Below are positions 7,208-63,948 of a stretch of 64,000 nt of DNA, one piece after another; the first letter of the stretch is position 1, and each line of letters starts with the position of its first letter. The stretch is taken from positions 91,986 through 155,985 of the forward strand of contig CAYMNK010000004.1 of the NCBI GenBank assembly GCA_964391805.1, in the 5' to 3' direction. The notes below the pieces were generated by a model. That model was not told the origin of the DNA. It made no database searches and was given only the letters and a program-made list of their open reading frames with translations. Source of the stretch: an uncultured Christensenellaceae bacterium (lineage in GTDB: Bacteria; Bacillota; Clostridia; Christensenellales; CAG-1252). Made by a program: the position numbers and the translations under genes.

Positions 7208-7228
7208 TGATTTTTTGATTGATTTTTT

Positions 7229-7605: not shown

Positions 7606-7632
7606 TTTTCTTTGCTTTGTTTTTATGTTCTA

Positions 7633-24450: not shown

Positions 24451-24514
24451 AAAAATATTATATATTTTTGTATTATCAATGTCAAGAGCGTTAGAAAAAT
24501 AACGTTTTACAATA

Positions 24515-24680
24515 AAAAGTATGCATTATTATATAATTTTTTTTCTGCGGATTTTAGATACCGACGCTATGCGTCGCCCTTCGGGTTCGACTACAGGACG
24601 GTGTCCTTCCGCTAAGTATGACGGGACGGGAATCAGTATGACATGATTGGGCGCTGACGCTTGCCATGATTGCGATACTT
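24515..24680 (+). repeat. Mosaic intergenic repeat locus R2 (one complete type-1 unit)
   Basis: GATACC, H1 (CGACGC-TAT-GCGTCG), H2 (CCC-TTC-GGG), GTTCGACTAC, H3 (AGGAC-GGT-GTCCT), TCCGCTAAGTATGAC, ...CAGTATGACATGATTGGGCGCTGACGCTTGCC. Confidence 0.85.
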
Positions 24681-24694
24681 TTACAAATAAAGCG

Positions 24695-26011
24695 TTAGTT
24701 TAAGCTATTAACTGTTCCTGAGAAAAGTACTGCACCGTAAGTATCGGTAATAACGAAACCAAAGGCTCTGTCAACAATATAGTCATGATATACCTCTGTG
24801 TATCCTTCCAGAGGACCTGCGGCTCCTGCCATCGGCATAATTGTTACGGCAGCACCTTCGATTCCTCTATCGGTTACATCGATGCTACATTTATGAATGA
24901 CCGCGTCGCAAGCAATTTCCTCATCGGTTATATTTGAAAAATCACATTCTTCACTATTGAACAAACTATTGATTCCGAAATCGTTTTTAAGAATGTCGGC
25001 AAGGTCATCGTCATATGAAGCATTATATTCGGGAAATAAGACTCTTGTATTATGCAACAGTTTATTTTCTTCGTCAATATATCCGTAATTGCCAATATTG
25101 TTGATATTGTATAAATTTTCCGTTGTAAATACTTCGTTAAGGGTTCGTCCGTCTGTAGGTACGATAAATTTTATATTGAAACCATGTTCCGTTCTTGTAT
25201 AGAATGAAGTGTATCCATCGCCCTGATAAATATTCCCTGCAAAATAATATCCGCTTAACAACTTAGTAGTTTTTACCGTTCCGTCTACATTTTTAAAATC
25301 GTAGGCTTTATCGGTAAACCTAAGTTCATCGCCATCTTCGTTCCAAACCTCTTTGAGGTAAAAAGTGTTGATAAGTGTAAATAGTGTTTCGGGAGACAGT
25401 TCTATATCTCCGTCAATAATGCCGTGAGTCTTTTCTTTGATATAGGCATTGATTGCTTTTTTGGCTTCATATGTTTTATAGTCCACGTTAAACATGTCGC
25501 AATTGTAATTGTGCGCAAGATTGTTTATTCCATCATCTTTAAGTGACGTGCCTTTATTTACCCAAATCGAATTGGCAAGTTCCTCGAATGCAACAATCTT
25601 TTTATTATTCAAAATATCGGTATAGTAGAATTCGCGATTGGAAAAAGCATATAAAAACTTAGTAAAATTATTTACTTCGTCGTAAGTAACACCCACTGCA
25701 TTCAATATTTCATCTCTCGTTTCACCGTTCGCACACTCGGTTGCAAGAGCAAGTGCCATATAAACCGAAACAGGTGAAATGCTAATATTTGATTTTTTAT
25801 CACTATCCGCGTATACCTCATAGGTCAATTTAACGGAAAAAGCGTCCAATTTATCAAGAAATTCTGCATAACCCTCCTGTTTAGAATCAGAATAATTAAC
25901 TTCAATCGCATCCGAAGCATAAGCGATAGTATAATCACCGAGATTAACCGAACAAGATGAAAAAGCAATACACATTATTACGATGAGTATTAAGGCTATT
26001 ATTTTCTTCAT
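24695..26011 (-). CDS. Serpin-family protease inhibitor, predicted lipoprotein
   Basis: Serpin-length protein with hinge/RCL region DRGIEGAAVTIMPMAGAAGP near the C-terminus. Signal peptide with FSSC lipobox. Start at ATG 26011 has GGAGG 8 nt upstream. Confidence 0.8.
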   Translation of the reverse strand: MKKIIALILIVIMCIAFSSCSVNLGDYTIAYASDAIEVNYSDSKQEGYAEFLDKLDAFSVKLTYEVYADSDKKSNISISPVSVYMALALATECANGETRDEILNAVGVTYDEVNNFTKFLYAFSNREFYYTDILNNKKIVAFEELANSIWVNKGTSLKDDGINNLAHNYNCDMFNVDYKTYEAKKAINAYIKEKTHGIIDGDIELSPETLFTLINTFYLKEVWNEDGDELRFTDKAYDFKNVDGTVKTTKLLSGYYFAGNIYQGDGYTSFYTRTEHGFNIKFIVPTDGRTLNEVFTTENLYNINNIGNYGYIDEENKLLHNTRVLFPEYNASYDDDLADILKNDFGINSLFNSEECDFSNITDEEIACDAVIHKCSIDVTDRGIEGAAVTIMPMAGAAGPLEGYTEVYHDYIVDRAFGFVITDTYGAVLFSGTVNSLN

Positions 26012-26267
26012 AAATTTGACCTCCATTTAGGTTATGCGATAGTGATTTAATGATACGCATAAAACATTGAGTATAGTGAAAATTGTATAATTCTACCATT
26101 TCTTTAGCATTTACCATAAATCATTACTTATATTATACACCATATGCTTTGTTAATTCAACCGCATAAACAAAAAATAGTGAAGATCCCCATTGCTTTGT
26201 TAATGTGGATATGGCGATTACTAATCGTCGCTATAAGATTTAAAATATATTATTGTTTGCAATAAAA

Positions 26268-26770
26268 AAGTATGCACACAAACAAACTCTTTCTTGTAAG
26301 GATTTAGATTCCGACGCTATGCGTCGCCCTAACGGGTTCGACTACGGGTTGTCACCCTTCGCTCAGAATGACATTTGATGGAGTCCGCCGTCATACTGAG
26401 CGTAGCGTAAGCGGAGTCGAAATTCGAGTGTAACGAGAATCAAACGGCGAAGGCGTTTGGTATCTTGCGGACGATAAAGAATAGTCAATTGAACGACTTC
26501 CTTTTTTAATGTGGAATAAGATACCGACGCGTTGCGTCGCTGCTACGCAGTTCGACTTCAGGGCGATGCCCTTTCGCTCAGTATGACAGCGGACGAAATT
26601 GGCTCAGTATGACGGCGGATGAAACCGACTTAGTTAGATATATATTTATCCGCAATATTGCGAAGCAATACATCATTTGCCGTAAGGCAAACATCATTCA
26701 TCATTATGCGTAGCATAACATCATTTACAATGAAGGGACGGAACAGTATGACATTGATGGTATCTGCGTA
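26268..26770. repeat. Mosaic intergenic repeat locus R3 (two type-1 units, one inverted type-2 unit, mini-hairpin triplet)
   Basis: Type-1 units at 26299-26383 and 26511-26625. The type-2 unit at 26384-26473 is the reverse complement of 7229-7311. Three hairpin+ACATCATT units span 26657-26725. Confidence 0.85.
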
Positions 26771-26787
26771 AAAATTGGTGATAATAA

Positions 26788-26819
26788 TGCGAAAACGGTG
26801 GGAGCAAAGCTACCCACCG
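26788..26819 (-). terminator. Rho-independent terminator of the ABC transporter operon
   Basis: Minus strand: CGGTGGG-TAGCTTTGCT-CCCACCG followed by TTTTCG. Confidence 0.6.
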
Positions 26820-26891
26820 CCGCATAAGGGGATAAAGAGGAAATTTATGATTCAACATTGTGTATTGTTGATGTCAATATATATCAATCTA

Positions 26892-28697
26892 CTATAGCGG
26901 TAGATCTTTCTTGGTAAATCTTATAGAACCTACTATGTATCCAAGCAAACCCATAACTATAAGTATTGCAAACTTCCATATGAAAGTTGTAGTATTTTCG
27001 ATAATCGATATTACATCGAATAACGATATTATTGTTACGTAATTAAAGTAATTTAGTGCTTTTAGACGAACTACCGATGGAATCACAGGACTTCCAAACA
27101 AGCCAAGCATTGCTGCAACCAACGCAAAAATACTCAATCCGCCACCGATTGCCATCGAGTGCTTGCTTCTATCGAAGAAACACGATGTAAAGAAACACAA
27201 TCCCGAAAGTGCAAACAATACAAGGAAAGCGCCTACATTGAGCAATATTAAGTTCCCATAACTCAACCCGACTTCTTCACCAACTATCGCTAAACAAACA
27301 CAGCCTGTTGCCGTCGTCAATCCGAACATCGCTAACAATGAACCTATTAAAAATACGCTTTGGGTAAATACTACCGTTTCTCTTTTTGTAGAGGTTGACA
27401 GTACATATGCCATAGATCCGCTATCTACTTGCCCTGCTATTAGGTTATTGGATGCCATAATCATATAGATTATCGGCAATAAAAGCCCTGCTAATTTATA
27501 GAAAATCGATCCGACAATCAAAGTATATAAGTTTGCTTTACCTACCTCTTCGAGCGCTTCGGATACCGAACTTGGAAGTGTTGTTAAAAAACTTGAAGAA
27601 ATTTCGGTTGCAAGATCGCTTTGCATACTCTTTACTGCCGTCGCATACTCTTCATCTGTCAATTCACCGTTATCGAGTTTTTCTTTTAGAAGCTCGGTTT
27701 CATATTCTACCCTTCCGCGATATGTAACAATGGAAGTTTTCGCCATACCCTTGACTGCATCGTAGGTATATCCAAACGAATCGAATTTTTCCTTAGTAAC
27801 GCCGTAACTCGATAATGCGTCGGTAAGCAACTCTACGTTTTCCGCTTTAAGCATATTACCCGCAAGGAATATTGCCGAACTGTCGAATGCTCTATCATCG
27901 CGATAGTCTATTCTTTCTCTCGACTTTACGTATTCATCGACTGTGCCAGATTGTATAGAGTTGATAATAGACATAAAGTCATAATCTTCGGGAATCGACT
28001 CTCCGTTTTCGATATAAAAATCGTCGAACATTCCGTTGGGATTTAATGCGTACATTACACTTCCTAACATCTCTTGCGCTTCGGACGAATTCTCGTCATA
28101 ACCTAATTTTTCCGCTTTTAATAGTATATATGCCTGTAAATCTGCACATGCATCGGTATATACTTTGGTAATTCCGTTTTCAACAGTAGCGGGAGATTGC
28201 GCTTGCCAATCGGCAATTGCGTTGAGATACTCGGTATTGTCAGTATAGTTACTTTCCTTCGGTTTGGAATTATTCCACTCGGTTACACTATCCGCATATG
28301 CCATCCCTGTGGATGTTGACATTTCGGGACACTGTAATGACCACAATAACAATGAGGATACATATGCACCGTTATCCTCAAAATCGGCTTCGTCGGGCAT
28401 TTTGGAACACCATAATAGATAACTCACGACATCATTTGCCTTCTCGCTAAATAACGAATCGAAATGAGCCAATCCGTCGGTAATATCCGAATAATAGCTC
28501 AAACCGCGTTTTTGTAATTGTGCATCGACTTCTTTAACTATAATGGTATCTTGGACCGAATCTTTTACTTCTCCTATATTTCCGTTGCCCGATATAAGCA
28601 TTACACAGGCAAGCATAAAGCAAACTGCAAACGTTATGATCGCCCACATTGTTCCGTTCGCTTTACATGATTGTTTAAATAAAGCTTTACTAAACAT
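26892..28697 (-). CDS. ABC transporter permease with large extracytoplasmic domain
   Basis: One N-terminal TM helix, a soluble region of about 380 aa, then about 5 C-terminal TM helices. Directly downstream of two ABC ATPase genes. Confidence 0.7.
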   Translation of the reverse strand: MFSKALFKQSCKANGTMWAIITFAVCFMLACVMLISGNGNIGEVKDSVQDTIIVKEVDAQLQKRGLSYYSDITDGLAHFDSLFSEKANDVVSYLLWCSKMPDEADFEDNGAYVSSLLLWSLQCPEMSTSTGMAYADSVTEWNNSKPKESNYTDNTEYLNAIADWQAQSPATVENGITKVYTDACADLQAYILLKAEKLGYDENSSEAQEMLGSVMYALNPNGMFDDFYIENGESIPEDYDFMSIINSIQSGTVDEYVKSRERIDYRDDRAFDSSAIFLAGNMLKAENVELLTDALSSYGVTKEKFDSFGYTYDAVKGMAKTSIVTYRGRVEYETELLKEKLDNGELTDEEYATAVKSMQSDLATEISSSFLTTLPSSVSEALEEVGKANLYTLIVGSIFYKLAGLLLPIIYMIMASNNLIAGQVDSGSMAYVLSTSTKRETVVFTQSVFLIGSLLAMFGLTTATGCVCLAIVGEEVGLSYGNLILLNVGAFLVLFALSGLCFFTSCFFDRSKHSMAIGGGLSIFALVAAMLGLFGSPVIPSVVRLKALNYFNYVTIISLFDVISIIENTTTFIWKFAILIVMGLLGYIVGSIRFTKKDLPL

Positions 28698-28703
28698 TGT
28701 CTT

Positions 28704-29606
28704 CTACTCCTTTGACTTCGATTTTGTTAATATTTTTTTGAAATGCATTTCTAAGGTATAAGGTAATTCGGATATAAATTTAACATCATACTCCCGGAGT
28801 GATTTCAGTAAATCGCCCGTATCGTGCGATCCGATCCTTATAGTCACCTGATTGTATTGCTCTTGAATCCTTATTTTATCAAACGGCTTTGATAAAAAAG
28901 CAGTAAAATCGGATGCATTATTAAATTCGATTTTAAAATCCTTAACTTCGCTATTACGTATACTATTCATATCGCAAATATCTATTAAATGCCCGTCATT
29001 TATCAATGCCACCTTATCACAAGTCTTTTCAAGTTCGTCAAAACTGTGACTACTCATAAATACCGTTTTTCCGCGCGAATGCTCTTCTTGAATTATATCA
29101 AGAAAAGTTGCACGCATAAGCGGATCGAGTCCCGTTGTAGGTTCATCCAAGATAATTATCGGTGAATTATTCATTAGCGCCGAGACAAGTGCCGTTTTTT
29201 GTTTCATACCTTTACTCATTCTCTTAAGATTGGCACGTGGATCGAGTTGCAAACGCTCTATCAATTCGTTTGCATAATTCATATCGGTCATTCCTAAAAA
29301 TTCCGCTTGACACTTAAGAAACTCGATTCCTGTTTTGAGATCGGGAAAAGCTATCTCACCGGGAACATAACCGATACTTTTGACTATCTCGTTCGAATGC
29401 TCCCAAGAGGTAAGTCCGTTTACGTATGAATTACCTTGATCGGGCTTCAAAAATCCTAATATGTGTCTAATTGTTGTCGTTTTACCGCTTCCGTTTGTTC
29501 CGACATATCCAATCATTTCGCCTTCTTCGATTGATAAGTTTAAATCAAAGATTCCGCATCCGTTTCCATAATCTTTGGAAAGATTTTTTAATTCAATTAC
29601 GCTCAT
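28704..29606 (-). CDS. ABC transporter ATP-binding protein
   Basis: GTNGSGKTT Walker A, MSKGMKQK signature variant, IIILDEPTTGLD Walker B. Confidence 0.85.
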   Translation of the reverse strand: MSVIELKNLSKDYGNGCGIFDLNLSIEEGEMIGYVGTNGSGKTTTIRHILGFLKPDQGNSYVNGLTSWEHSNEIVKSIGYVPGEIAFPDLKTGIEFLKCQAEFLGMTDMNYANELIERLQLDPRANLKRMSKGMKQKTALVSALMNNSPIIILDEPTTGLDPLMRATFLDIIQEEHSRGKTVFMSSHSFDELEKTCDKVALINDGHLIDICDMNSIRNSEVKDFKIEFNNASDFTAFLSKPFDKIRIQEQYNQVTIRIGSHDTGDLLKSLREYDVKFISELPYTLEMHFKKILTKSKSKE

Positions 29607-30568
29607 TTCAATGCACCTCCGTAATTGTTGTCTTCCTTGTAAAACTTCATAAAATAGTCTTCGAGAGTTTCTTTTCGATTGCTAAACAACGAAACGGAAA
29701 GTTCGGATAACATCGATATTAAAGTATTCAAATCGCTATCTTCTACCGAAATGTATACCGTATTTTCACTTACACTAAGTAACATCATCGAAGAAATTTG
29801 ATCCTTTTCCAATAAGAAATTAGATAAATCATCATCCATTTCGAATGTGATATTATAGTTTTTTCGTGTAGCATGTTTTAAGTCATCCGCGACAAACTCT
29901 GATACTATCTTGCCGTCCTTAATGATCGCAATTCTATCACAAGTATTATCGATTTCGGAGAAGATGTGACTCGATAAAAGTATTGTCTTGCCTCTTGCTT
30001 TCTCTTCGTGAATAAAGCGAATAAACACTTCTTGCATCACCGGATCGAGCCCACTTGTAGGTTCGTCTAAAATCAAAACTTCGGGATCCGACATAAATGC
30101 TGTAACAACAGCAAGTTTGCGCTTAACACCTAAACTCATTCGCTTAGTTTCACAGCAAAGAACTTTGTCATCGAGTTCGAACAAAGTTAGCATATCGCTT
30201 AGTCGTTCTTCATTATGGATTCCTTGCAAATTTTGCATCATCCTTATAAATTCCCAGCCTGTTAAACCTTGGGGTAATGCTATTTCTCCCGGGATATATC
30301 CCACCTTGTTGAGTATTTGATGATATCGATCAAAGCTTTCCATTCCAAAGATTTTTGTACTTCCTGTATCAGGTTTAGAAAAGCCCATCAAATGTCTGAT
30401 CGTAGTGGACTTTCCTGCGCCGTTTGGTCCTAAAAAGCCAAAAACTTCACCCTTTTTTACATGAAAGCTAACATCAAAAACTCCTCTCGAAAAACCATAA
30501 TCTTTGGTCAAATGATCAATTTCGATAATATTTTCATTCAAAATAACCGATTTTTCTTCGTTTTCCAT
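29603..30568 (-). CDS. ABC transporter ATP-binding protein
   Basis: GPNGAGKST, MSLGVKRK and VLILDEPTSGLD motifs. Start at ATG 30568 has GGAGG 7 nt upstream. Its stop overlaps the next ATG (ATGA). Confidence 0.85.
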   Translation of the reverse strand: MENEEKSVILNENIIEIDHLTKDYGFSRGVFDVSFHVKKGEVFGFLGPNGAGKSTTIRHLMGFSKPDTGSTKIFGMESFDRYHQILNKVGYIPGEIALPQGLTGWEFIRMMQNLQGIHNEERLSDMLTLFELDDKVLCCETKRMSLGVKRKLAVVTAFMSDPEVLILDEPTSGLDPVMQEVFIRFIHEEKARGKTILLSSHIFSEIDNTCDRIAIIKDGKIVSEFVADDLKHATRKNYNITFEMDDDLSNFLLEKDQISSMMLLSVSENTVYISVEDSDLNTLISMLSELSVSLFSNRKETLEDYFMKFYKEDNNYGGALK

Positions 30569-30598
30569 CTTTTTAGCCTCCTTATTTTTTTTGAACAC

Positions 30599-30639
30599 TG
30601 TTGACATTTGAACATTGTTATATTATAATTATGTCAACA
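30599..30639 (+). promoter_or_regulatory. Consensus sigmaA promoter for the tetR-family gene, overlapped by a 9-bp inverted repeat (candidate operator)
   Basis: TTGACA (30601-30606), 17-nt spacer, TATAAT (30624-30629). Inverted repeat TGTTGACAT (30599-30607) / ATGTCAACA (30631-30639). Confidence 0.6.
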
Positions 30640-30718
30640 ACAAAAAGAAAGTACACATTTTTATTCAATGTTAATATTTAAACAGAGTAAATAAATTTGT
30701 GTAAAGTTAGGAGAAACA

Positions 30719-31285
30719 ATGAAGGTACAAAACAAAAATAGGTCTTCCATAAAGACAAAAAGAATAATTAGAAAAATGTTTGCCGAAATGCTTTCGGAGA
30801 AAAAAGATCTTGGTAATATTTCGATAAGCGAACTTTGTGAACGTGCTGAGATTTCACGCGGGACCTTTTACGCCCACTATGACGATATCTACGGTGTTGC
30901 CGAGGAGTATGAAAACGAACTTATCGATACGTTCTTCAGCAATGTCGAATCGATAAATCCGCATAATATTATGGATGTAATGGATACTATATTTCAATTT
31001 ATTAAACAAAATAATGAGAATTATCAGTTATTATGTAAGTCAAATGAGATTCTTTTTGCAGCAAAAAAATTGACTCAAACCACATCGACTAAGCTATTAG
31101 AGATTATCGAAAGAGATTTTAAAACAAAAAATAACAAATTTATCGAATTAGATATAACCATTTTCTTAGACGGTATTTTTTGTGAATATGTCAAAAGTTG
31201 CAGAGGTTATTCCAATAAATCGCTCGACGATTTATATGAGTATAGTAAATATTGGTTATCAAACTTTATTAAGTTAATAGGATAA
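30719..31285 (+). CDS. TetR/AcrR-family transcriptional regulator
   Basis: N-terminal HTH (ISISELCERAEISRGTFYAHYDDIY). AGGAG SD. Divergent from the ABC operon. Confidence 0.85.
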   Translation: MKVQNKNRSSIKTKRIIRKMFAEMLSEKKDLGNISISELCERAEISRGTFYAHYDDIYGVAEEYENELIDTFFSNVESINPHNIMDVMDTIFQFIKQNNENYQLLCKSNEILFAAKKLTQTTSTKLLEIIERDFKTKNNKFIELDITIFLDGIFCEYVKSCRGYSNKSLDDLYEYSKYWLSNFIKLIG

Positions 31286-31700
31286 GCGCTAACGCGAATG
31301 ATGTTATGCTTTGCATAATGATGTTACTTCGTAATGAGGTTTGCCTCTGGCAAATGAGGTTTTGCGTTGCAAAATTGTGGATGCAGATACCGACGAGTTG
31401 CATCGCCCTACGGGTTCGACTACAACATGACATGATATATGTCGATATCGTTCGCAAGATACCAAATTGTTGCACAATTTGATTCTCGTTACGCTCGAAT
31501 TTCGACTACGCTCAGTATGACGGCGAACGAAATTTGCTTGCCTTGAGGTGTATTTAGATTCCGACGCTATGCGTCGCCCTATCGGGTTCGACTACGGGTT
31601 GTCACCCTTCGCTCAGTATGACTATATTGGGCGCTATCGCTTACCTTGATATGGATAAGGCATCTACTAAACGCCCTCATGATGTAATATATTATTTCTT
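31286..31700. repeat. Mosaic intergenic repeat locus R4 (5 mini-hairpins, truncated type-1, type-2, type-1 unit)
   Basis: Hairpins with AATGATGT/ATGAGGT linkers span 31286-31373. The type-2 unit at about 31450-31525 is closed by CGTTCGC/GCGAACG. The type-1 unit at 31545-31650 has a core identical to 26299-26370. Confidence 0.85.
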
Positions 31701-31720
31701 TTATTGCAAAGATGTACCAC

Positions 31721-32752: not shown

Positions 32753-34252
32753 TTATAATTCATAACTTGTGGGAATATCTGCAAGTATCAAAAGTGTATC
32801 ACCCGATACAAGCAACTCGGAATATATCTTGATACATTCTTGCATATCACGCGCTATTCGAAAGGGAATCCTTTCACCAATAATATCAAGCATTGCTTTT
32901 TTATTCTTATTACCGAGAATTATAAGCATATCTGCACATTCTTCTACCTTATCAATCAACATATTCAAGGCTTGTTTGTCATTGCTTCCTTGTTCGACAA
33001 AGCCCGACGAAGTCACTATTTTCCTCCCATTTGCGGTTTTCAAAACATCTAATGCCGAAATTGCACCTAACGGATTGATATTGAAACTGTCATCTATAAT
33101 CGTGATACCCTTATCGTTCTTAATTAATTCCATCCTATGCGGTACAGCCTTGACCGAAGGTAGTGAATTAACGATATCGTCTATGTCGATACCAAGTCTA
33201 ATCGCTACACCTATTGCCAATATTAAATTGTCCGCATTCACGTTACCTAAGAGTTTAGATCGAATAGTTAATTCTTTACCGTCTATAACTGCATTTATTA
33301 TTGTACCGTCAACCGTGCATTGTTTAGAAATACACTGACTTTCACCGAAAAATACCGTATTACTTGGAAAATCATCACCTGCCCATTTGCATTTTTCATT
33401 GGCAAAACTCATATGAGATGCCTTTAAAAGCTTCACTTTTTCGCTAAATACCGCACCGATATCCCCAAATGTTTCAAGATGCTGTGGAGAAATGGCAGTC
33501 AATATCCCAATATCAACGGGTACGATATCTAATAAGCAGTCAATATCTCCTTTATGTCTTGCTCCGTACTCTACTATAAAAATATCGGTATCCGACGGCA
33601 TTGTCGAGATAGAACGCACCAGCCCCATAGGTGTATTGTAGCTTTTCGGTGTTACGTAAATCTTTCCGAGCGGTGCAAGCAACACTTTCAATATCTCTTT
33701 GACAGTCGTTTTACCTGCACTTCCGGTTATTCCTATTACCATTGGCTTAACGGTAGACAATTTAGTTTTCGCATCTAAAATGTAGCGATTATTTATTCGT
33801 TTTTCAATAGGATGCATAATAAGCAACGATATGTAAGCGAATATTCCGCTAAGTGCAACAATTATTCCATATGAATAGACATACTCTTTAACCCACCAAA
33901 TGGGAAGCGAAAGAGAAACAACTATCACGCTATATAGCGAATAACATCTAATAAGTCTATGTGTAAAAGTTACCCTCAACCCGATGTAGCGAATCGCTTT
34001 ATATACTCCCGAAATCAAGCTCGGTATCATTGTTATCAAACAAGCAACTGACGCGTCAAGAAAGTTTGAGAACTTAAAAATCAAGCTTAATACTACGGCA
34101 ATGATAAATGTCAAAGTATCTATAACTATAAGTTTTGTTACACCAAACAAGCAGTCCTTAGGCTCGTAACTTTTAGACTGAAATCCACCAAAGTAAAAAT
34201 ATGAATTGAGCAAAAATAAAAATAATCCAAATAGAAAAATCACAATATTCAT
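32753..34252 (-). CDS. murF: MurF-like Mur ligase with polytopic membrane N-terminal domain
   Basis: GITGSAGKTTVKE P-loop, central Mur ligase domain and C-terminal PHRMELI...IIDDSFNINP. The N-terminal 170 aa or so contain 5 hydrophobic helices. ATG 34252 overlaps the upstream stop (ATGA). Confidence 0.75.
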   Translation of the reverse strand: MNIVIFLFGLFLFLLNSYFYFGGFQSKSYEPKDCLFGVTKLIVIDTLTFIIAVVLSLIFKFSNFLDASVACLITMIPSLISGVYKAIRYIGLRVTFTHRLIRCYSLYSVIVVSLSLPIWWVKEYVYSYGIIVALSGIFAYISLLIMHPIEKRINNRYILDAKTKLSTVKPMVIGITGSAGKTTVKEILKVLLAPLGKIYVTPKSYNTPMGLVRSISTMPSDTDIFIVEYGARHKGDIDCLLDIVPVDIGILTAISPQHLETFGDIGAVFSEKVKLLKASHMSFANEKCKWAGDDFPSNTVFFGESQCISKQCTVDGTIINAVIDGKELTIRSKLLGNVNADNLILAIGVAIRLGIDIDDIVNSLPSVKAVPHRMELIKNDKGITIIDDSFNINPLGAISALDVLKTANGRKIVTSSGFVEQGSNDKQALNMLIDKVEECADMLIILGNKNKKAMLDIIGERIPFRIARDMQECIKIYSELLVSGDTLLILADIPTSYEL

Positions 34253-34935
34253 ACAATCCCCCTTGCAAACTCGGTAACTAATGAATAAAACCTTGTCGGC
34301 TCTTCTAAAAAACAAAAGTGTCCGCAGTTTTCGAATATAACCGTTTTATGCTTAGATATGTTACGCTCCAACTTTTTGAGCATATATATAGGCGTTTCCC
34401 TATCCTTTTCACCCCATATAAGCATTGTAGGTACGCTGATTATCGTTGTTAGTTTAGATAAATCCTCGTTAACGACATTGACAAAGGTCTTCTTCATTGT
34501 ACCGGTTAGCCGTTTATAGTCCTCAGAACCCATACTCGACGAAATTCTCATTCTTTTTAGAATTTTATATACCCCAACCTTGATGAAATAATCTAAACAA
34601 CGTTTTGGTTTTATTCCTGCCGAATCGACTAGAACAAGCCCTGCTACACGCGTATTGGATGCAAGTTTAATAGCAACCCTTCCCCCAAAGGAATGCCCTA
34701 TAACTATCACGTCTTCCATATTATAATAACGCATTATCTCTTCTACCGCTTGTACGAAATAATCGAGATTAATGGGAAAGGGAGGTGAGGGAGATCCACC
34801 GAAACCGTAAAAATCAAGCCTTGTTACGGTAAAGCCCTGTAAATTGTCCGCCGTTTTGAATATTTCTTTATCACAACCCCATCCATGCAAAAACAAAAGT
34901 TCCGCGCCACTACCGTTGCGTTCGTGTGAAAGCAT
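34249..34935 (-). CDS. Alpha/beta hydrolase (esterase family)
   Basis: HGWG oxyanion motif, GHSFGG nucleophile elbow, C-terminal GH. GGAGG SD. Confidence 0.8.
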   Translation of the reverse strand: MLSHERNGSGAELLFLHGWGCDKEIFKTADNLQGFTVTRLDFYGFGGSPSPPFPINLDYFVQAVEEIMRYYNMEDVIVIGHSFGGRVAIKLASNTRVAGLVLVDSAGIKPKRCLDYFIKVGVYKILKRMRISSSMGSEDYKRLTGTMKKTFVNVVNEDLSKLTTIISVPTMLIWGEKDRETPIYMLKKLERNISKHKTVIFENCGHFCFLEEPTRFYSLVTEFARGIV

Positions 34936-34965
34936 TTCCCCTCCTATTCGATTATTAATCGGATT

Positions 34966-35403
34966 TTAGTCGCGATACAACCAATAAATCAAAGCGTCTT
35001 CGCCGTCCATGTAATAATGAGGTCTTACTCCGACGCATTTAAACAAATACTTCTCATATAAACCGATGGCTTTTACATTACTTCTCCTAACCTCTAAGGT
35101 CAAATTATCAAGCCCCTGCGTAAGAGTTTGACTAAGCAACGATTCCATCATCGCACTGCCGTAGCCGAAGCCTTGAAAACAAGGAAGTATCGCTACGTTC
35201 ATTATATGCGCTTCGTTAAAAATGTGTAAATAACTGTAGTAACCTATAACTTGTTCGTCCAAATAAAAAAGGCTGTATGTCGTATTGCTCTGCCCAACCT
35301 CGCTTTCGAGCATACCATAACTCCAAGGATCGGGAAAACATTGCTTCTCGATATCCTCTAAAGTCTTACAATCTTCGATACTTGCCTCTTTAATACTAAA
35401 CAT
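34966..35403 (-). CDS. rimI: Ribosomal-protein-alanine N-acetyltransferase
   Basis: GNAT fold motif (QGFGYGSAMME). Conserved tsaE-tsaB-rimI order. Confidence 0.8.
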   Translation of the reverse strand: MFSIKEASIEDCKTLEDIEKQCFPDPWSYGMLESEVGQSNTTYSLFYLDEQVIGYYSYLHIFNEAHIMNVAILPCFQGFGYGSAMMESLLSQTLTQGLDNLTLEVRRSNVKAIGLYEKYLFKCVGVRPHYYMDGEDALIYWLYRD

Positions 35404-35981
35404 TATTCTTTTTTACCCTCTCTCATTCTTTCTGCTTGAGATTTTTTTAGGTACATAGGTTCAAGCGGTTTTAATTCATTATGCTCAACCATATATACAG
35501 CCTTAGTAAACAATGCGGAAATATACTCGTCATCAGTCACTTCTCTGCCGTATTCGCTCTCCATATATCTATAACTAAAATCGGAATAAGACACAATCTC
35601 TTCCATAGATTTCTCACCGTATTCGCCGTCTAATCTGTAATAGCAATAACCACGTCTTGACGGAATAACAGCCAATCCTTCACCGAAGCCGTCAAATACG
35701 TTCAATCCGGATTTAGCAATATCCGCACCGAAACTTAGCGCGTTAGCAGTACAAACGCCTATTCTTATACCTGTAAACGATCCCGGACCTACAAGTGCAA
35801 ATACACAGTCAATATCTTGCAATTTAAGCTTAGATTCGGTCAATACGCTATCGATAAACGGAATAATAGAAGACGAAGTCGTACCCTTATTACCCGATCC
35901 GAATTTTTTATATATAGTACCGTCTACAAAAGTTGCAACAAGCATTCTGTCTGCCGTAGTATCTATCAATAACAGTTTCAT
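35403..35981 (-). CDS. tsaB: tRNA t6A37 biosynthesis protein TsaB
   Basis: MKLLLIDTT N-terminus, GPGSFTGIRIG motif and position between tsaE and rimI. Confidence 0.85.
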   Translation of the reverse strand: MKLLLIDTTADRMLVATFVDGTIYKKFGSGNKGTTSSSIIPFIDSVLTESKLKLQDIDCVFALVGPGSFTGIRIGVCTANALSFGADIAKSGLNVFDGFGEGLAVIPSRRGYCYYRLDGEYGEKSMEEIVSYSDFSYRYMESEYGREVTDDEYISALFTKAVYMVEHNELKPLEPMYLKKSQAERMREGKKE

Positions 35982-35982
35982 A

Positions 35983-37230
35983 TCAAATTCCCTCTATCGT
36001 AATTGTTCTCTCGGTTTCTGATAAATAGTCGATGTTCACGGTAATGACCTTGGCTCCGTAGTATTCTTGAGCGACAGTCCATTCAATAAGGCATACACTA
36101 TCCGCTAAACCATAATACTCCTCGAATCCGTAATCGATGTCACTTCCCGACGGTAACCTGTACATATCGAAATGATACATTTTAAGTCTACCCGATTCGT
36201 AACTATTCATTAAAGTAAACGTAGGACTTGTAATAGTTTCGCTAATACCCAAACCAAGTGCTATTCCCTTAGAAAAAGTAGTTTTACCCGCACCCAATTC
36301 GCCGTTCAAAAGAATAACCTCTCCGCCCGATAGCCGAGATGCCAATTTGACGCCTAAATTCATAGTTTGTTCTTGAGTACAAGTTACGTATTCCATAGTA
36401 GAATTATACAACGACTCGTCGTTTTTGGCAATAATATTTGAGTTATTTACGTTGTCCTGTGTATTATTGCCCTTCTTTTGGGCGTTAAATCGCTTATTTG
36501 TCGCTTTAATCAACTTAGATAACGGCTTGTATACAAGAAATACCGCTACAGATAATAAAACAGTTTTTATAAGATTAAATAATACCGCCCAATACCATAC
36601 GTCTAAATAAAACGCCATACCGTCAAGCCAAGGTGTATCCATATATACGCCAAGATAGAACGGAAAAGTCAACAAATAATTGATAGGCACCGAAAATGCC
36701 GTTTGAGCAATGACAGCACAAACAAGCATAATGATTACAGCCTTGATTCCCTTATGTTTTTTATAGGCAAACGAAGGAATCAATACATAAGGAAGCATTA
36801 ATAAAATATTGGCAAGTTCGCCCACTCCTACTGTTTGAGAAAAGGTCAAAGCGTGCAATAATTCTTTTAAAACTCCGACTATTATAGCCGACAACGGTCC
36901 CATGGTAAGTCCCGAAATCAATACAAAAACATTGGAAAAGTCAATTTTTAGAAATGGAACAGCAGGAAAAATGGGAAATTCAAATGTAGGTAAATAAAGA
37001 ATATATGCTATTGCCGTAAACAATGCCATATAGGTCAATCTTAACGGTGTAAAATACTTGGTTCTTATAACTTTTTCGTCCGTTTTCTCTTCGATTAAAA
37101 TAGGCTTATCAAAGTCGTTTGGCTCAATCGATTCATTGTTTTGAGAAGCTAACGAAGATTGCATTTGAACATTAGTACCGCTTGTTACATCATTAACAAC
37201 AGTGCTTTCGATATCTTGAATTTGGTCCAT
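35983..37230 (-). CDS. Single ORF fusing a RibU-type ECF S-component (riboflavin transporter) with TsaE
   Basis: Residues about 60-240 are RibU-like (FLKIDFSNV, 5-6 TM helices). The last 137 aa, from an in-frame Met at 36396, are TsaE (LNGELGAGKTTFSKG, SPTF, FDMYR). No stop codon lies between them. Confidence 0.75.
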   Translation of the reverse strand: MDQIQDIESTVVNDVTSGTNVQMQSSLASQNNESIEPNDFDKPILIEEKTDEKVIRTKYFTPLRLTYMALFTAIAYILYLPTFEFPIFPAVPFLKIDFSNVFVLISGLTMGPLSAIIVGVLKELLHALTFSQTVGVGELANILLMLPYVLIPSFAYKKHKGIKAVIIMLVCAVIAQTAFSVPINYLLTFPFYLGVYMDTPWLDGMAFYLDVWYWAVLFNLIKTVLLSVAVFLVYKPLSKLIKATNKRFNAQKKGNNTQDNVNNSNIIAKNDESLYNSTMEYVTCTQEQTMNLGVKLASRLSGGEVILLNGELGAGKTTFSKGIALGLGISETITSPTFTLMNSYESGRLKMYHFDMYRLPSGSDIDYGFEEYYGLADSVCLIEWTVAQEYYGAKVITVNIDYLSETERTITIEGI

Positions 37231-37267
37231 ATTATAAACCTCGAAATAGATTTAAAGCCGTTCCTTG

Positions 37268-37293
37268 AAAAAATATCCCGATATCTCGGGGTA
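37268..37293 (-). terminator. Expression-platform terminator of the FMN riboswitch
   Basis: Minus strand: 8-bp stem (TACCCCGA...TCGGGATA) with a 4-nt loop, followed directly by T6. It lies about 35 nt upstream of the ribU ATG. Confidence 0.65.
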
Positions 37294-37310
37294 ACAAACT
37301 AAAGTAGTTT

Positions 37311-37425
37311 CATTCTTTTCTCATCCGGACTGTTACCGTAGGTACGGGAATTTCACCCGTTCGGGACCGAAGTCTTCGTGGACTATACCACCTGTGGGGA
37401 TTTACACCCCGCCCCAAAGAATAAC
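37311..37425 (-). promoter_or_regulatory. FMN riboswitch (RFN element) aptamer
   Basis: Minus strand: UUCUUUGGGGCGGGGUGUAAAUCCCCACAGGUGGUA...GGGUGAAAUUCCCGUACCUACGGUAACAGUCCGGAUGAGAAAAGAAU. This matches the conserved RFN core. P1 is UUCUUU/AAAGAA. It lies upstream of a RibU-like gene. Confidence 0.9.
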
Positions 37426-37496
37426 TTTATTAATTGAAGTATATCACTAAATATATTTGGTGTCAATAATTAGTGAAGTATTTATTGACTTTTCAT

Positions 37497-38090
37497 TCTT
37501 TAATGGATTTTTGATTCCGATGCCATTGGCATCGCTACTACGCAGTTCGAATACAGACTTCGTCTCACTCAGTATGACATGATTGAACGCTGACGCTTGC
37601 CTTAATATGGATTGTAGATACCGATGCCGATGGTATCGCTGCTACGCAGTTCGACTCCGCTTGCGCTACGCTCAGTATGACGGGACGGAAATTAGTATGA
37701 CGCTCAGTATGACATGATTGAACGATTGCGCTTGCTTTTATGTGGATAATTGATAGATTGTTGACAAAAATAAATCCAAAATAAAAAGCAAGTGCGATGA
37801 CTTGCTTTGGCGGGCGATTACTAATCACTCTTGTTTTTATAATATATTATTAGCGTTTTTTGTAAAATTCTATGTGCTACTTTTGCTTTTTTTACACGGA
37901 ATCAGATACCGATGCCGATGGCATCGCTGCTTCGCAGTTCGACTTCGGGCTTCACCCTTCGCTCAGAATGACAAGATGGCGGGCGATTACTAATCGCTCC
38001 TATTTTTTTGTAATATAATGTCGTATCTTTGTAATATATTATTGTATTTTCTGTAAATTTTATATGCTTTTTATGCTTTTAAATTTAGCA
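37497..38090 (+). repeat. Mosaic intergenic repeat locus R5 (three type-1 units, double-hairpin modules, tail modules)
   Basis: Type-1 cores start at about 37511, 37617 and 37903. CAGTATGAC occurs at 37570, 37673 and 37705. Double hairpin at 37783-37830. GGCGGGCGATTACTAATCGC recurs at 37977. Confidence 0.85.
37783..37808 (-). terminator. Terminator hairpin (repeat-borne) downstream of scpB
   Basis: Minus strand: AAAGCAAGT-CATCGC-ACTTGCTTT followed by TTATTTT. Confidence 0.55.
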
Positions 38091-38102
38091 TTCATTGAAG
38101 AC

Positions 38103-38912
38103 TTAATCGTTTTCGCCTTCTTCGTCGGAAACATCTTCCGATAAATCTTCATCGGCGACATAATCGTCTTCGATATCTTCGTCGGCAGTTACATCGGATA
38201 AATCATCATTGGATATATAATCGTCTTCCAGGTCATCCTCTAATTCACCCGCGCCCATAGATAGGCTGACATCGGATATATCTTCTTCATCGAGTTTGAT
38301 AAAATTCTCATCGATTTCAAGCTTAGCAAAGTCGGAAGGAACTTCTTTAAACAATGACTTCTCTTCACAAGCTTCGGTGATTGCTTTCAACCTATTTTGA
38401 ATCTCTGCCGACTCGGTAAGTTCATAGATATTCTTAAGTTGGAAACGAAGAAGGAATTCTTGAGTTGTGCTATATTCTCTCGGCGTTCCTAAAGTATTAC
38501 GTTTACCCGATACGTAAATCAACTTAGCTGCTTGCAATACGTTGATAGCATAATCACAGTTGACTCCTCTAATTCTTTCGATTTCGCCTTTGGTTACGGG
38601 TTGTTCGTATGCAACAATGGCAAGGGTTTCAAGCAATACGCCGGTCAACTCTTTTTGCTTGTCCTTTAACAAAATATCGCCTACTTGTTCACCGACCTTG
38701 GAATATGTAGATATGCTGAGTAACTCGCCGAAATCATTGAGAACCAGACCGCTGGTACCGTCGTTGGGGTACTTTTGTTTAAGTTGATAAATTGCAAGTT
38801 CCAACTCGCTTGGATCGATATTCGATTTTTCTAAAATAGTATCTCGAGTTACGCCTCTTTTACCTGCTGCGTAAATTACGCCCTCAACTAATATTTGAAC
38901 ATTATTATCCAT
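38103..38912 (-). CDS. scpB: Segregation and condensation protein B with long acidic C-terminal tail
   Basis: ScpB winged-helix region (EAIVYEQPVTKGEIERIRGVN). Follows scpA. Confidence 0.85.
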   Translation of the reverse strand: MDNNVQILVEGVIYAAGKRGVTRDTILEKSNIDPSELELAIYQLKQKYPNDGTSGLVLNDFGELLSISTYSKVGEQVGDILLKDKQKELTGVLLETLAIVAYEQPVTKGEIERIRGVNCDYAINVLQAAKLIYVSGKRNTLGTPREYSTTQEFLLRFQLKNIYELTESAEIQNRLKAITEACEEKSLFKEVPSDFAKLEIDENFIKLDEEDISDVSLSMGAGELEDDLEDDYISNDDLSDVTADEDIEDDYVADEDLSEDVSDEEGEND

Positions 38913-42544: not shown

Positions 42545-42900
42545 GACAAGAATGCAAGCTGTGCTTACGCAATATGTGTCTAACGACACACGATATAGCT
42601 TCGCTACGATATGTGCCTTTGGGCACGCGATATGTTGCTTCGCAAAAGTTGCGGATAAGGATTTTAGATTCCGACACTTTGTGTCGCCCTACGGGTTCGA
42701 CTACAGACTTCGTCTTTCGCTCAGAATGACATTTGATGGTGCACGTTATCGTCCGCAAAATATAAAACTGACTTTTAGTTACCGTCCAAGATACTGCTCG
42801 GCTCTGCCTCGCACTGCTTAGGCAGTTCGACTACAGACTTCGTCTTCCGCTCAGTATGACGGGACGGGAACAAGTATGACGGCGGACGGACGCTGACACG
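42545..42900 (+). repeat. Mosaic intergenic repeat locus R6 (5 mini-hairpins with CGATATG linkers, two type-1 units)
   Basis: Mini-hairpins span 42556-42644. Type-1 cores start at about 42665 and 42790, both with H3 = AGAC-TTC-GTCT. CAGTATGAC at 42852. Confidence 0.85.
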
Positions 42901-57839: not shown

Positions 57840-58125
57840 ATGCTGATAAGACGCTGACGCTTACTTTGATTAAGGATTAAGATACCGACGCATTGCGTCG
57901 CCCTATCGGGTTCGACTTCGCTTACGCTCAGTATGACATGATTAGACGCTAATGCTTACATTGATATGGATGATTGATAGACTGATGACAAGTTTAATGC
58001 AAAATAAAAAGCAAGTGCGAGGACTTGTTTTGGCGGGAGATTACTAATCTCCCCTACACATTTGTTATATATTGTTATCGTCGCTTGTGAAAGGTTATGC
58101 ATTATGACATGCTTTTTTTATGCGG
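57840..58125 (+). repeat. Mosaic intergenic repeat locus R8 (single near-full-length composite copy)
   Basis: Tail fragment, type-1 core (57885-57937), tail, double hairpin (57998-58050), then a tail module ending in TATGCATTATGACATG. Confidence 0.85.
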
Positions 58126-62713: not shown

Positions 62714-63715
62714 TTGAAAAAAAAGAAAAACAAAATTTTAGCAATTATCGGGGCCACGGGGCTGGTCGGACGTACGGTATTGAAGGTTCTCGAAGAAAGA
62801 AAACTTCCTTTTGACGATTATTTACTATTCGCATCGGCTAAAAGCGAAGGGGCTTTACTCGCTTTTTTAGGAAAAGAATATACCGTACATGCCCTGACGA
62901 TTGAAAATGTACTCGACAAGGGAATCACTCATGCTATATTAGCGGTAAACTGCAATATCAGTAAGGAGTTCGCACCAATACTTAGGGAAAACGGCATAAT
63001 TGTGGTGGACAACAGTAGTTATTGGCGATTAGATAAAAATTGTCCGCTCGTCGTCCCCGAAGTAAATCCGGAATGTTTATATAATCATAAAGGAATAATC
63101 GCAAATCCTAATTGCACAACTACCATTACTTCGGTTGTTTTAAAGCCGTTACACGATATATTCAAAATCAAAAGAATAGTCTACTCTACCTATCAATCGG
63201 TATCGGGTGCAGGAATGCAAGGGATAGCCGATCTCGAAAGAGGAATTAACGGAGAAATGCCTGTAAAATTTGCATTTCCGATTTTTTCGAACCTTATTCC
63301 TCTAATAGACACAGTAATGAACGACGGTTATACTAAAGAAGAGTACAAAATGATAAATGAGACAAGGAAAATACTAAATAAACCAAAGTTACCGATTACT
63401 GCGACAGCGGTAAGAGTTCCGGTATACATATCTCACGGTATAAGCATTAACGTAGAATTTAAACGAAGATGCGATACATCATTAATCAGACAAGTGCTGA
63501 GTAATTCTAAGGGAGTAACCATTGTAGACGACACAAAAAATGGCGTTTACCCTATGCCGATTTATGCGAAAAATAAAGATACGGTATATGTAGGAAGAAT
63601 TCGAAAAGATAATTCTGTCAAGTACGGGTGTAATTTGTGGATCGTGGGTGATAACCTTAGGAAAGGTGCGGCAACAAATGCAGTACAAATTTTGGAGTTA
63701 TTGGTAGGTTTTTAG
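62714..63715 (+). CDS. asd: Aspartate-semialdehyde dehydrogenase
   Basis: IIGATGLVG NAD motif and IANPNCTT active-site Cys. Probable TTG start at 62714 has a GAGG SD; the ORF track extends to 62669. Confidence 0.88.
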   Translation: MKKKKNKILAIIGATGLVGRTVLKVLEERKLPFDDYLLFASAKSEGALLAFLGKEYTVHALTIENVLDKGITHAILAVNCNISKEFAPILRENGIIVVDNSSYWRLDKNCPLVVPEVNPECLYNHKGIIANPNCTTTITSVVLKPLHDIFKIKRIVYSTYQSVSGAGMQGIADLERGINGEMPVKFAFPIFSNLIPLIDTVMNDGYTKEEYKMINETRKILNKPKLPITATAVRVPVYISHGISINVEFKRRCDTSLIRQVLSNSKGVTIVDDTKNGVYPMPIYAKNKDTVYVGRIRKDNSVKYGCNLWIVGDNLRKGAATNAVQILELLVGF

Positions 63716-63720
63716 TAAAT

Positions 63721-63948
63721 GGTATGTGCTTTTTTACACTTTTTTACAAGGATTTTAGATACTGCAAGGCAAGCCTTGCACTGCTTCGCAGTTCGACTCC
63801 AGGGCAATACCCTTTCGCTCATTATGACAAGATGGGGCGCTATCGCTTACCCTAATTTGGATAAGGGGATTACTAATCGTCCCTATTTCTTGTAATATAT
63901 TATTAGTACTTTTGTAAATAGTATGCGACTTTATGATGTTTTTCGTGG
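63721..63948 (+). repeat. Mosaic intergenic repeat locus R9 (one type-1 unit with divergent H1, tail and tail module)
   Basis: GATTTTAGATAC, H1 (TGCAAGGC-AA-GCCTTGCA), H2 (TGC-TTC-GCA), GTTCGACTCC, H3 (AGGG-CAATA-CCCT), TTCGCTCATTATGAC, ...GGGGATTACTAATCGTCCC...TTGTAATATATTATTAGTA. Confidence 0.8.

Follow-up and report, generated by a model that had tools for sequence, protein, structure and literature searches.

A dispersed family of hairpin-junction repeats resembling REP and REPIN elements in an uncultured Christensenellaceae bacterium

Introduction

The described systems closest to the repeats considered here are repetitive extragenic palindromic (REP) sequences, the bacterial interspersed mosaic elements (BIMEs) that they build, and REP doublets forming hairpins (REPINs). 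BIMEs are established to alternate the orientation of their REP units (PMC2817692), and REPINs have conserved ends, variable hairpin parts in which compensatory changes are common, and tandem clusters (PMC3116915). Groups of the REP-associated tyrosine transposase (RAYT) have been reported in Clostridia, Cyanobacteria, Chlorobia, Caldilineae, and many other classes (PMC5581495). Here we analyze a stretch of 64,000 nucleotides (nt), hereafter the window, from an uncultured Christensenellaceae bacterium (contig CAYMNK010000004.1, positions 91,986 to 155,985), in which clusters of hairpin-bearing repeats occupy intergenic sites, among them the flagged locus at 37,497-38,090. An initial annotation of the sequence had likened these repeats to REP/BIME elements, and we judge that analogy to be right: the repeats are extragenic and high in copy number, their hairpins are compensated, and no transposase adjoins them. 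We see a roughly even chance that the repeat cores belong to the REP/REPIN-like kind, are non-autonomous, and function as single-stranded DNA (ssDNA). The family is real and, as far as can be told from searches of Rfam 15 and the full-text literature, undescribed.

Results

Read on the + strand, a core consists of AGATWC, a hairpin H1, a hairpin H2, GTTCGACTNC, a hairpin H3, and YNCGCTCAGWATGAC. An outer stem, P1, often closes it. When the window was searched by nhmmer with a profile derived from an alignment of copies, the census gave 13 full cores, 12 on the + strand and 1 on the - strand, starting at 7363, 24556, 26306, 26390 (-), 26519, 31556, 37513, 37616, 37904, 42666, 42789, 57880, and 63757; with three of them in the flagged locus, the census agrees with the initial count of about 13 and 3. 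It also returned two variant, P1-bearing cores (7238-7301 and 31458-31521), one truncated copy (31385-31424), and solo 3' boxes. The 12-mer GCTCAGTATGAC, with at most one mismatch, occurs 18 times in the window against 0.15 expected, on the + strand in 17 of the 18 cases. By self-BLAST the repeats cover 2,391 nt in nine blocks, every one of them intergenic, amounting to 3.7% of the window and to some 23% of what lies outside open reading frames (ORFs) of at least 110 amino acids (aa); the first estimate of 3 kb, or 5%, was slightly high. Clusters are present in all three convergent intergenic regions of the window and in none of the three divergent ones.

The initial annotation had placed one composite element at about 10 loci. 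Most of these loci carry cores; the 2.56-kb locus holds a short hairpin array only and the 56.3-kb locus only degenerate fragments of the 3' box, and neither has a core. The linker, double-hairpin, and tail modules proposed there were recovered as repeat families D1/D5, D9/D10, and D12/D17, and the single composite gives way to a mosaic of separable parts, namely, a core family, a bidirectional-terminator module, and hairpin-plus-linker arrays. No regular array exceeds two or three tandem units in the window, and neither cassettes nor spacers were found, so that the repeats are neither an integron attC array nor, as had been noted, a CRISPR array.

The anatomy of the core was derived from 127 copies, some in the window and the others in 86 stretches belonging to further genomes. 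They share the invariant skeleton GAT.C / GTTCGACT.C / T.CGCT.A..ATGAC, and full cores span 63 to 72 nt. RNAalifold on a MAFFT alignment was uninformative because the variable hairpins were misregistered, and an anchor-based parse was used instead. The 93 distinct copies contain 73 different H1, 43 different H2, and 39 different H3 sequences, and their stem positions are 90 to 100% canonical with two to four pair types each. Canonical pairs number 4.69 in H1, 3.70 in H2, and 2.66 in H3, against 3.17, 2.79, and 1.45 when arms are swapped between copies. The W-W pair of stem P2 (AGATWC versus AGWATGAC) is T-A in 59 copies, A-T in 30, and mismatched in 4, and other phyla add the variant pairs AGATGC/GCATGAC and AGATCC/GGATGAC. 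The outer stem P1 is present in many families, with a lineage-specific sequence. Within single genomes, close hairpin variants differ chiefly in their loops; where their stems differ, 28 differences are two-sided and compensatory, 9 are one-sided and still paired as G·T, and 22 leave one copy unpaired.

The window copies at 7228-7311 and 31448-31531 lie 24 kb from each other and are identical at all but 4 of 84 positions, and two of the four differences make a C-G to T-A swap in P1; because the flanks of these near-identical copies are unrelated, they delimit a discrete 84-nt unit. P1-bearing and nested units fold with z scores of about -3.0 to -3.5 relative to shuffles. The common denominator of all forms is a scaffold of about 28 nt, GTCAT-NN-TGAGCG...AGTCGAA...NN-ATCT, in which a short stem, ATNN/NNAT, closes a conserved loop and up to three variable mini-hairpins (H3, H2, and H1) are optionally intercalated at fixed positions. 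Several other candidates were set aside: a tRNA-like T-arm, as GTTCGACT lacks closing pairs; a hammerhead or hairpin ribozyme core, a k-turn, and a Chi-like AGCGG, all dropped on inspection of the sequences; and a pC194-type nick site, CTTGATA, in the linker, a match of only 7 nt on the strand that does not fold.

Structural selection acts on the reverse strand, GTCATWCTGAGCG…AGTCGAAC…GGWATCT (the GTCAT strand), and not on the one on which the element had initially been read: loop and mismatch asymmetry both point to the reverse complement. The GTCAT strand reads GNA in 141 of the 174 triloops and the AGAT strand in a single one, and frequent tetraloops on the GTCAT strand are GCAA and GTAA, of the GNRA type. 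Internal mismatches counted on the AGAT strand are Y·Y in 34 cases and R·R in 2, so that on the GTCAT strand they are purine·purine, for the most part tandem G·A. An A·G opposition invariably flanks H3. The window contains GCGNAGC 14 times on the - strand and 7 times on the + strand, where the matches within repeats belong to the inverted copy and a hairpin array. Folding with DNA parameters makes the GTCAT strand the more stable one for 89 copies out of 119 (p=1.6e-9); in the same comparison, no strand difference emerges with RNA parameters. In nested composites (18 cases) and inverted doublets, both orientations share one strand.

These asymmetries bear on whether the active form is DNA or RNA. 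Mini-hairpins of the d(GCGNAGC)/d(GCGNNAGC) type are extraordinarily stable and are poorly bound by ssDNA-binding protein (SSB), their RNA counterparts are much weaker, and natural DNA mini-hairpins are located at ssDNA priming or promoter sites (Hirao review, PMC13037366). In the flagged locus, the cores at 37513-37713 lie between a bidirectional terminator and the strong rib promoter (37466-37438) and hence in DNA that is probably poorly transcribed; the majority of cores likewise follow an intrinsic terminator and precede the next promoter. Because C(GNA)G stabilization is DNA specific and most cores lie past terminators, we favor ssDNA over RNA as the active form. Of the two options originally offered, a structured RNA or a repeat mobilized as ssDNA, the loop, folding, and context evidence thus favors the second, although mobilization itself would be a further step. 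GC skew is negative on the + strand of the window, which makes the GTCAT strand the template for lagging-strand synthesis there. An opposite sign of orientation relative to genes or GC skew in the metagenome-assembled genome (MAG) CAZSIF proved to be only apparent, as opposite-orientation partner copies adjoin the matched ones.

A pattern scan of 185,579 species genomes returned at least 86 matching stretches, with about two chance matches estimated. Among the matches listed, most are MAGs of uncultured gut Clostridia labelled Oscillospiraceae, Christensenellaceae, Eubacteriales, and similar; copies in dozens of MAGs show the family to be dispersed, as had been proposed, and no mere local duplication. 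Further matches are labelled Verrucomicrobiae, Chloroflexota, Planctomycetota, Abditibacteriales, Patescibacteria, and Cryptobacteroides (Bacteroidota), and these have the 5' box and its flanks and take the minimal form or that of doublets. We regard them as genuine relatives because of the box, the flanks, and, usually, a second, inverted copy nearby, with the proviso that the contigs are short and mis-binning is possible. A match in Methanoregulaceae lacks the 5' box and is probably due to chance. Copies nest in one widespread family, where in 18 cases an oppositely oriented outer element encloses the matched copy within its H3; loci L003, L005, L010, and L046 contain inverted doublets or inverted composites with nesting. 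The relative L177 has minimal copies with no hairpin or one, GTCATCCTGAGCG-GAGTCGTAA-GGATCT and GTCATTCTGAGCG-AA-GCGTAGC-GG-AGTCGAA-GAATCT, and one of its minimal copies lies between ribU and tsaE in the sense orientation.

Searches for a described family were negative. At gathering thresholds, Rfam 15 matched only a flavin mononucleotide (FMN) riboswitch and three tRNAs in the whole window; at E<=10 on both strands of the flagged locus, it gave chance-level matches of at most 15.5 bits, so that the lack of relationship to a recognized family, suspected at the outset, holds even at permissive thresholds. Collections of plasmids, phages, and viral contigs contained no match to the element, and in the full-text literature the box strings appeared only as primer coincidences, while keyword searches gave no description of the family.

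Comparison with relatives revealed rapid gain and turnover of the repeats. Homologs of Ddl assign the organism to a poorly described lineage of Clostridia, the named matches having at most 47% identity. Relatives with 94, 79, 77, 67, and 63% Ddl identity were compared; along relatives approaching the window, copy density rises from 0 in 21 kb, the value for the relative at 63%, through 3 in 21 kb and 1 in 13 kb to the 13 copies in 64 kb of the window itself. At the same site, different modules are present in a genome that shows 92% identity over the region. Copies presumed to be orthologous differ in their H1 stems, with full compensation (CAAACGGC-ATA-GCCGTTTG versus CAAATTGT-GCA-ACAATTTG).

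The clusters are also sites at which recombination or rearrangement has taken place and at which assemblies break. In distant relatives the gene order is ScpA, ScpB, five genes, RibU, TsaE … MurF, Ddl, ABC_tran; the five genes are absent in the window, the cluster at 37.5-38.1 kb sits exactly at that junction, and synteny with relatives stops at the promoter at 37438-37466. Similarly, window positions 24.5-31.7 kb are absent from the relative with 77% Ddl identity (about 80% nucleotide identity). This 7.2-kb segment (24500-31720) contains a serpin gene (24695-26026), three ABC-2-type transporter genes (26892-30607), and a TetR gene (30719-31285), and its ends are the direct-orientation clusters 24542-24665 and 31297-31696. 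In the relative, ddl is followed by a gap of about 150 nt and then by the ortholog of window position 24499; within the gap is one P1-bearing element with matching orientation, and the P1-bearing core at 31448-31531 is likely the ortholog of this single copy (L174/L175). Contigs of the genome that is 92% identical end inside repeats, and contigs from a single sample holding the same strain likewise break there. One of the latter, L001, is 99.98% identical to window 32983-37701 and diverges from it precisely at 37701, inside a 3' box, to continue through other repeat copies into different genes, a 295-aa ORF and a dUTPase (L001 1-1888); the population may contain an alternative arrangement, or else assembly created a chimera at the repeat.

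To look for a mobilizing enzyme, element-bearing loci totalling 664 kb were screened in all six frames with RayT, IS608, and IS200 references. The screen yielded a single IS200 TnpA, frameshifted, whose position some 120 nt away from an L023 copy proved coincidental. Otherwise it bore out the observation that no transposase accompanies the element, in the window or in these loci. A RayT homology search returned only enterobacterial proteins and was of no use for Clostridia. The only recurrent ORFs beside the element encode pilin-like paralogs and generic ABC ATPases; the recurrent neighbor in CAZSIF was rejected as a transposase, the ORFs being pilin-like N_methyl paralogs. In that MAG (CAZSIF01; L003, L029, L047, and L063), paralogs of 437 to 539 aa with an N-terminal prepilin-type methylation motif directly adjoin repeat copies in four loci. 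In L023 (1-930), the IS200-family element lies between the apparent 3' end of one copy and a full copy, and upstream, at about 45-90, a sequence ending ...CCTCACCA resembles the 3' half of a tRNA.

The three full cores of the flagged locus all fold on the - strand. Core copy 1 (37513-37578; nhmmer E=2.3e-8) reads TGATTCC-H1(CGATGCCATTGGCATCG)-H2(CTACTACGCAG)-TTCGAATAC-H3(AGACTTCGTCT)-CACTCAGTATGAC on the + strand. The linker ATGATTGAACGCTGACGCTTGCCTTAATATGGATTGT (37579-37615; families D1/D5/D13), which like the other linkers and the tails has no assigned strand, separates it from its tandem partner, core copy 2 (37616-37681; E=1.5e-16), the top-scoring core of the window, and core plus linker make a period of 104 nt. 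Remnants of nested or overwritten copies come next (37682-37713, - strand; family D18 and profile census), namely, a P1 arm that has lost its partner and a pair of solo 3' boxes (GGGACGG AAATT AGTATGAC GCTCAGTATGAC). A second linker copy with an A/T-rich spacer, recognized from the sequence and family D15, follows at 37714-37784. The intrinsic terminator of the - strand gene scpB, AAAGCAAGTcatcgcACTTGCTTT then TTATTTTGGA (37785-37808, -), belongs to a module that recurs at 7500-7525 and about 58003-58030; next to it are a decayed + strand terminator hairpin, GGGCGATTACTAATCACTC (37812-37830; D9/D19), and an A/T-rich tail module, TATAATATATTATT...TTTTGTAAAA...TATGTGC (37836-37895; D12/D17/D19). 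Core copy 3 (37904-37972; E=3.5e-15) falls within the 3' region of scpB, upstream of that gene's terminator on the - strand. Beyond it are a + strand intrinsic terminator hairpin, GGGCGATTACTAATCGCTC then CTATTTTTTT (37981-37999), and a locally duplicated tail module (21-nt unit, 2.7 copies; 38007-38063; D12), which abuts the scpB stop codon at 38103. On the other flank, a strong sigma-A-type promoter, TTGACA-17-TATACT with an upstream TG (37438-37466, - strand), drives the FMN-riboswitch/ribU-tsaE operon.

The genes on either side have peculiarities of their own. The 3' end of scpB contains a 57-nt tandem repeat (2.4 copies; 38092-38228) encoding an acidic, D/E-rich C-terminal tail, and ScpB is 269 aa long in the window and 229 aa in the relative L178. 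The FMN riboswitch (102 bits; 37309-37425, -) precedes a single 415-aa ORF (35983-37230, -) in which an energy-coupling factor (ECF) riboflavin-type S component (RibU-like) is fused to TsaE; the fusion is kept in relatives down to 77% Ddl identity, and the genes are separate at 67% and 63%.

The sister clusters are built from the same parts. The cluster at 7224-7613 (-) comprises a variant P1 core (7228-7311), a full core (7363-7427), a solo box (7453-7469), a bidirectional terminator (7500-7547), and a tail, and that at 24542-24665 (-), one boundary of the 7.2-kb indel, a core (24556-24622) and a linker. The cluster at 26283-26725 is of mixed orientation: + cores at 26306-26372 and 26519-26587 accompany the sole inverted core of the window (26390-26464, -), which makes a tail-to-tail doublet (26306-26464), and an inverted hairpin array (26640-26725). 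At the other boundary of the indel, 31297-31696 (-) holds a hairpin array, the truncated core (31385-31424), the P1-bearing core (31448-31531), a full core (31556-31622), a linker, a decayed hairpin, and a tail. The cluster at 42656-42893 (-) combines a core (42666-42730) with a concentrically nested copy (42748-42893), in which the copies have the same orientation and an outer stem, CGTCCGC/GCGGACG, encloses an inner one, CCGTCC/GGGACGG (fold z=-3.3). The last two are 57871-58119 (-), with a core (57880-57937), a linker, a bidirectional terminator-like module, and a tail, and 63708-63919 (-), with a core (63757-63828), a linker, a hairpin, and a tail.

What had been described as a double hairpin is a back-to-back bidirectional intrinsic terminator, with the - strand hairpin AAAGCAAGT-N6-ACTTGCTTT followed by Ts and the + strand hairpin GGGCGATTAYTAATCGCCC followed by Ts; its sites are 7500-7547, 37785-37830, 37981-37999, and about 58003-58053. 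Because the module is dispersed behind several unrelated genes, terminators seemingly travel within the mosaic. A second kind of repeat consists of tandem arrays of very short, variable-stem hairpins, mainly with triloops, at 2555-2640, 26640-26725 (inverted), 31285-31380, and 42545-42650. Each array has its own fixed linkers (GAAATC; AATGAKGTT/ACATCATT; CGATATGT), and the loops are purine rich on the strand that carries the GNA loops of the cores. The array at 2.56 kb is preceded by three + strand tRNA genes (2280-2521) and a terminator. The linker with consensus YTTNATRTGGAT, which is found upstream of most cores, holds DnaA-box-like sequences on the - strand: TGTGGATAA at 37741-37749 is a perfect DnaA-box consensus (TTATCCACA) on that strand, and 7 to 8 of 9 positions match at 26.2, 31.37, and 31.65 kb. 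These matches may be coincidence.

Discussion

A REP/REPIN-like mode of spread would account for the observed architecture as follows. Where the GTCAT strand became exposed as ssDNA, it would fold into a compact, SSB-resistant junction, and an enzyme acting in trans, from a single gene located elsewhere in the genome, might recognize or cleave the invariant boxes. A Y1/HUH transposase of the RAYT or IS200/IS605 type would be the likeliest such enzyme, and the RAYT groups reported in Clostridia make a RAYT-type partner plausible. Such an enzyme would copy the unit into intergenic DNA with a preference for sites beside or inside existing copies, and this preference could produce tandem arrays, inverted doublets, and nested composites, that is, BIME-like clusters.

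Several observations weigh against this explanation. No Y1/HUH or other transposase was linked to the element in the 664 kb of element-bearing loci, and the IS200 of L023 is refuted as a partner: the hairpins of its left and right ends (LE/RE) are unrelated to the boxes, and 80 close relatives of its TnpA have no box in 302 kb of flanks. The near-identical copies at 7228-7311 and 31448-31531 show neither a target-site duplication nor a conserved flanking tetranucleotide, and comparison of strains and relatives gave no pair of filled and empty sites with clean boundaries. The bare 74-nt core folds no better than shuffles (z about 0), counts of G·T versus C·A in stems show no strand preference, GNRA loops and tandem G·A are compatible with RNA too, and the orientations of copies with respect to replication and to transcription are confounded in the window. 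The boxes are far better conserved between phyla than are classical REPs, whose distribution is lineage specific, and unlike the alternating units of BIMEs and REPINs the window copies are tandem and direct, 12 of the 13 having one orientation.

Other readings were considered. One of them, and a rather unlikely one, is that the scaffold of about 28 nt is no mere lineage-specific REP and represents a pan-bacterial class of self-nesting structured-nucleic-acid element, served by a conserved enzyme (a new transposition or nicking system) or itself catalytic.

We consider it improbable that the cores act as a structured RNA transcribed from the GTCAT strand, which is gene sense here, be it a stabilizer or terminator in the 3' untranslated region, a small noncoding RNA, or a multicopy self-cleaving ribozyme. 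Invariant junction boxes with covarying helices are a classic signature of functional RNA, GNRA tetraloops and tandem G·A lie on the gene-sense strand, and the boxes are conserved across phyla; the core at 37904-37972 even lies inside the scpB 3' region ahead of the terminator, and the minimal copy of L177 stands in sense between ribU and tsaE. Most cores, however, are located between a terminator and the next promoter, and nested or inverted copies put half of the units in the wrong sense in any transcript. Moreover, the dominant C(GNA)G triloops stabilize DNA far above RNA, folding with RNA parameters gives no strand preference, there is no G·U excess, Rfam has no match on either strand even at E<=10, and copy number and turnover are typical of selfish DNA.

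Equally doubtful is that the folded hairpins or duplex boxes are host-domesticated DNA sites, of the kind used for primase or PriA restart (ssi-like), by gyrase, IHF, or Pol I (as for BIMEs), or by DnaA, maintained for a role in the chromosome and spread by recombination with no dedicated transposase. Mini-hairpins of this kind do mark places where ssDNA is naturally primed, and they exclude SSB; in the window, lagging-strand synthesis uses the GTCAT strand as its template, with 12 of 13 copies in one orientation, and linkers carry DnaA-box-like TGTGGAT(AA), perfect as TTATCCACA at 37741-37749; conservation of the boxes across phyla would be expected if a universal host protein recognized them. 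The patchy presence of the element (0 copies in 21 kb of the 63% relative and 0 in 302 kb of other gut contigs) argues otherwise, as an essential function would not range from zero to dozens of copies among close relatives, and positions are not conserved between relatives, and copies decay, truncate, and nest. A passive origin, in which palindrome-prone DNA is amplified by slippage or template-switch errors and homologous recombination and intrastrand templated repair mimics compensation, could produce the 104-nt-period tandem arrays, the 21-nt tail duplications, the fixed-linker hairpin arrays, the coincidence of clusters with rearrangements, and, by template switching within hairpins, compensation among very young copies, but is very unlikely given near-identical discrete units 5 to 24 kb apart with unrelated flanks, the same invariant boxes in distant phyla with lineage-specific stems, and a strict loop and mismatch asymmetry that indicates selection on one strand.

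If the REP/REPIN-like interpretation is right, a type of biology documented mainly in Proteobacteria extends to uncultured gut Clostridia and several phyla, with a unit architecture (junction, self-nesting, and GNA mini-hairpins) that has not previously been described. The invariant boxes and the defined active strand provide a handle for discovery of the enzyme by phyletic profiling. The repeats also explain why assemblies of these organisms fragment at intergenic sites, they mark rearrangement hot spots such as the 7.2-kb serpin/ABC-transporter indel and the five-gene rearrangement, and when metagenomes are annotated, translation of the copies (…FAQ[YND]D…) probably gives rise to spurious ORFs.

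Comparison with described systems places the family among dispersed repeats of several kinds. Among the pneumococcal BOX, RUP, and SPRITE repeats, BOX elements are built from modular sub-elements and are not known to have invariant junction boxes or the GNA-loop asymmetry; cyanobacterial small dispersed repeats (SDR; mentioned in PMC3116915) insert inside other repeats or hairpins. The likeness to both groups lies in modularity and insertion in repeats, with no sequence relationship apparent. The element departs in sequence and architecture from classical REPs, from palindrome-associated transposable elements (PATEs), and from miniature inverted-repeat transposable elements (MITEs), and it has unusual traits besides, namely, a junction on a scaffold found across phyla, self-nesting, and a strict GNA/GNRA strand asymmetry. 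Unlike a classical MITE, it ends in GTCAT... and ...ATCT, which form a complementary stem of only 4 bp, P1 is variable or absent, and no target-site duplication is seen. In IS608 and ISDra2, transposition of ssDNA on the lagging-strand template gives a replication strand bias. The PATEs of the IS200/IS605 family resemble the element in being non-autonomous and hairpin bearing, without terminal inverted repeats or an evident target-site duplication, and in their replication strand bias; a PATE, however, shares its LE and RE with a resident full-length insertion sequence, whereas the ends of the L023 IS200 are unrelated, and the element has no evident conserved flanking tetranucleotide. With the mini-hairpins of ssDNA initiation sites (G4 origin, ssiA, N4 ssDNA promoters; Hirao 2026) the element shares C(GNA)G / GCGNAGC, strand specificity, and a predicted SSB resistance; those hairpins are single phage or plasmid sites and not chromosomal families dispersed in dozens of copies.

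The closest parallels are with BIMEs and REPINs. Like Escherichia coli BIMEs, the clusters are mosaics of palindromic units and a few fixed linkers, intergenic and at gene 3' ends; unlike them, the mosaic includes a repeated bidirectional terminator, and there is no sequence similarity. Only one inverted doublet occurs in the window (26306-26464), the remaining copies being direct, and doublets are known from the other genomes. Nothing in the list of REP consensus sequences is similar to the element, and the palindrome with a 5' GTAG/GTGG that characterizes REPs is replaced by a junction of three to four helices; on the folding strand, a G-N-AG with variable N precedes TCGAAC-H2, 5 nt from the hairpin. 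Classical REPs and REPINs are single imperfect palindromes, whereas the element is a multi-hairpin junction on a 28-nt scaffold whose copies nest within each other's helices. What the family shares with the REPIN and REP-RAYT systems of Pseudomonas and Enterobacteria (Bertels & Rainey 2011, Nunvar 2010, Bertels 2017) is its form as short, extragenic, high-copy repeats with conserved blocks (nine blocks, 2,391 nt, and 13 cores in 64 kb), together with variable, compensated hairpins, inverted doublets, tandem clusters, and a presumed ssDNA-hairpin substrate. The likeness extends to the absence of an adjacent transposase, as RAYT is a single-copy gene product that acts in trans.

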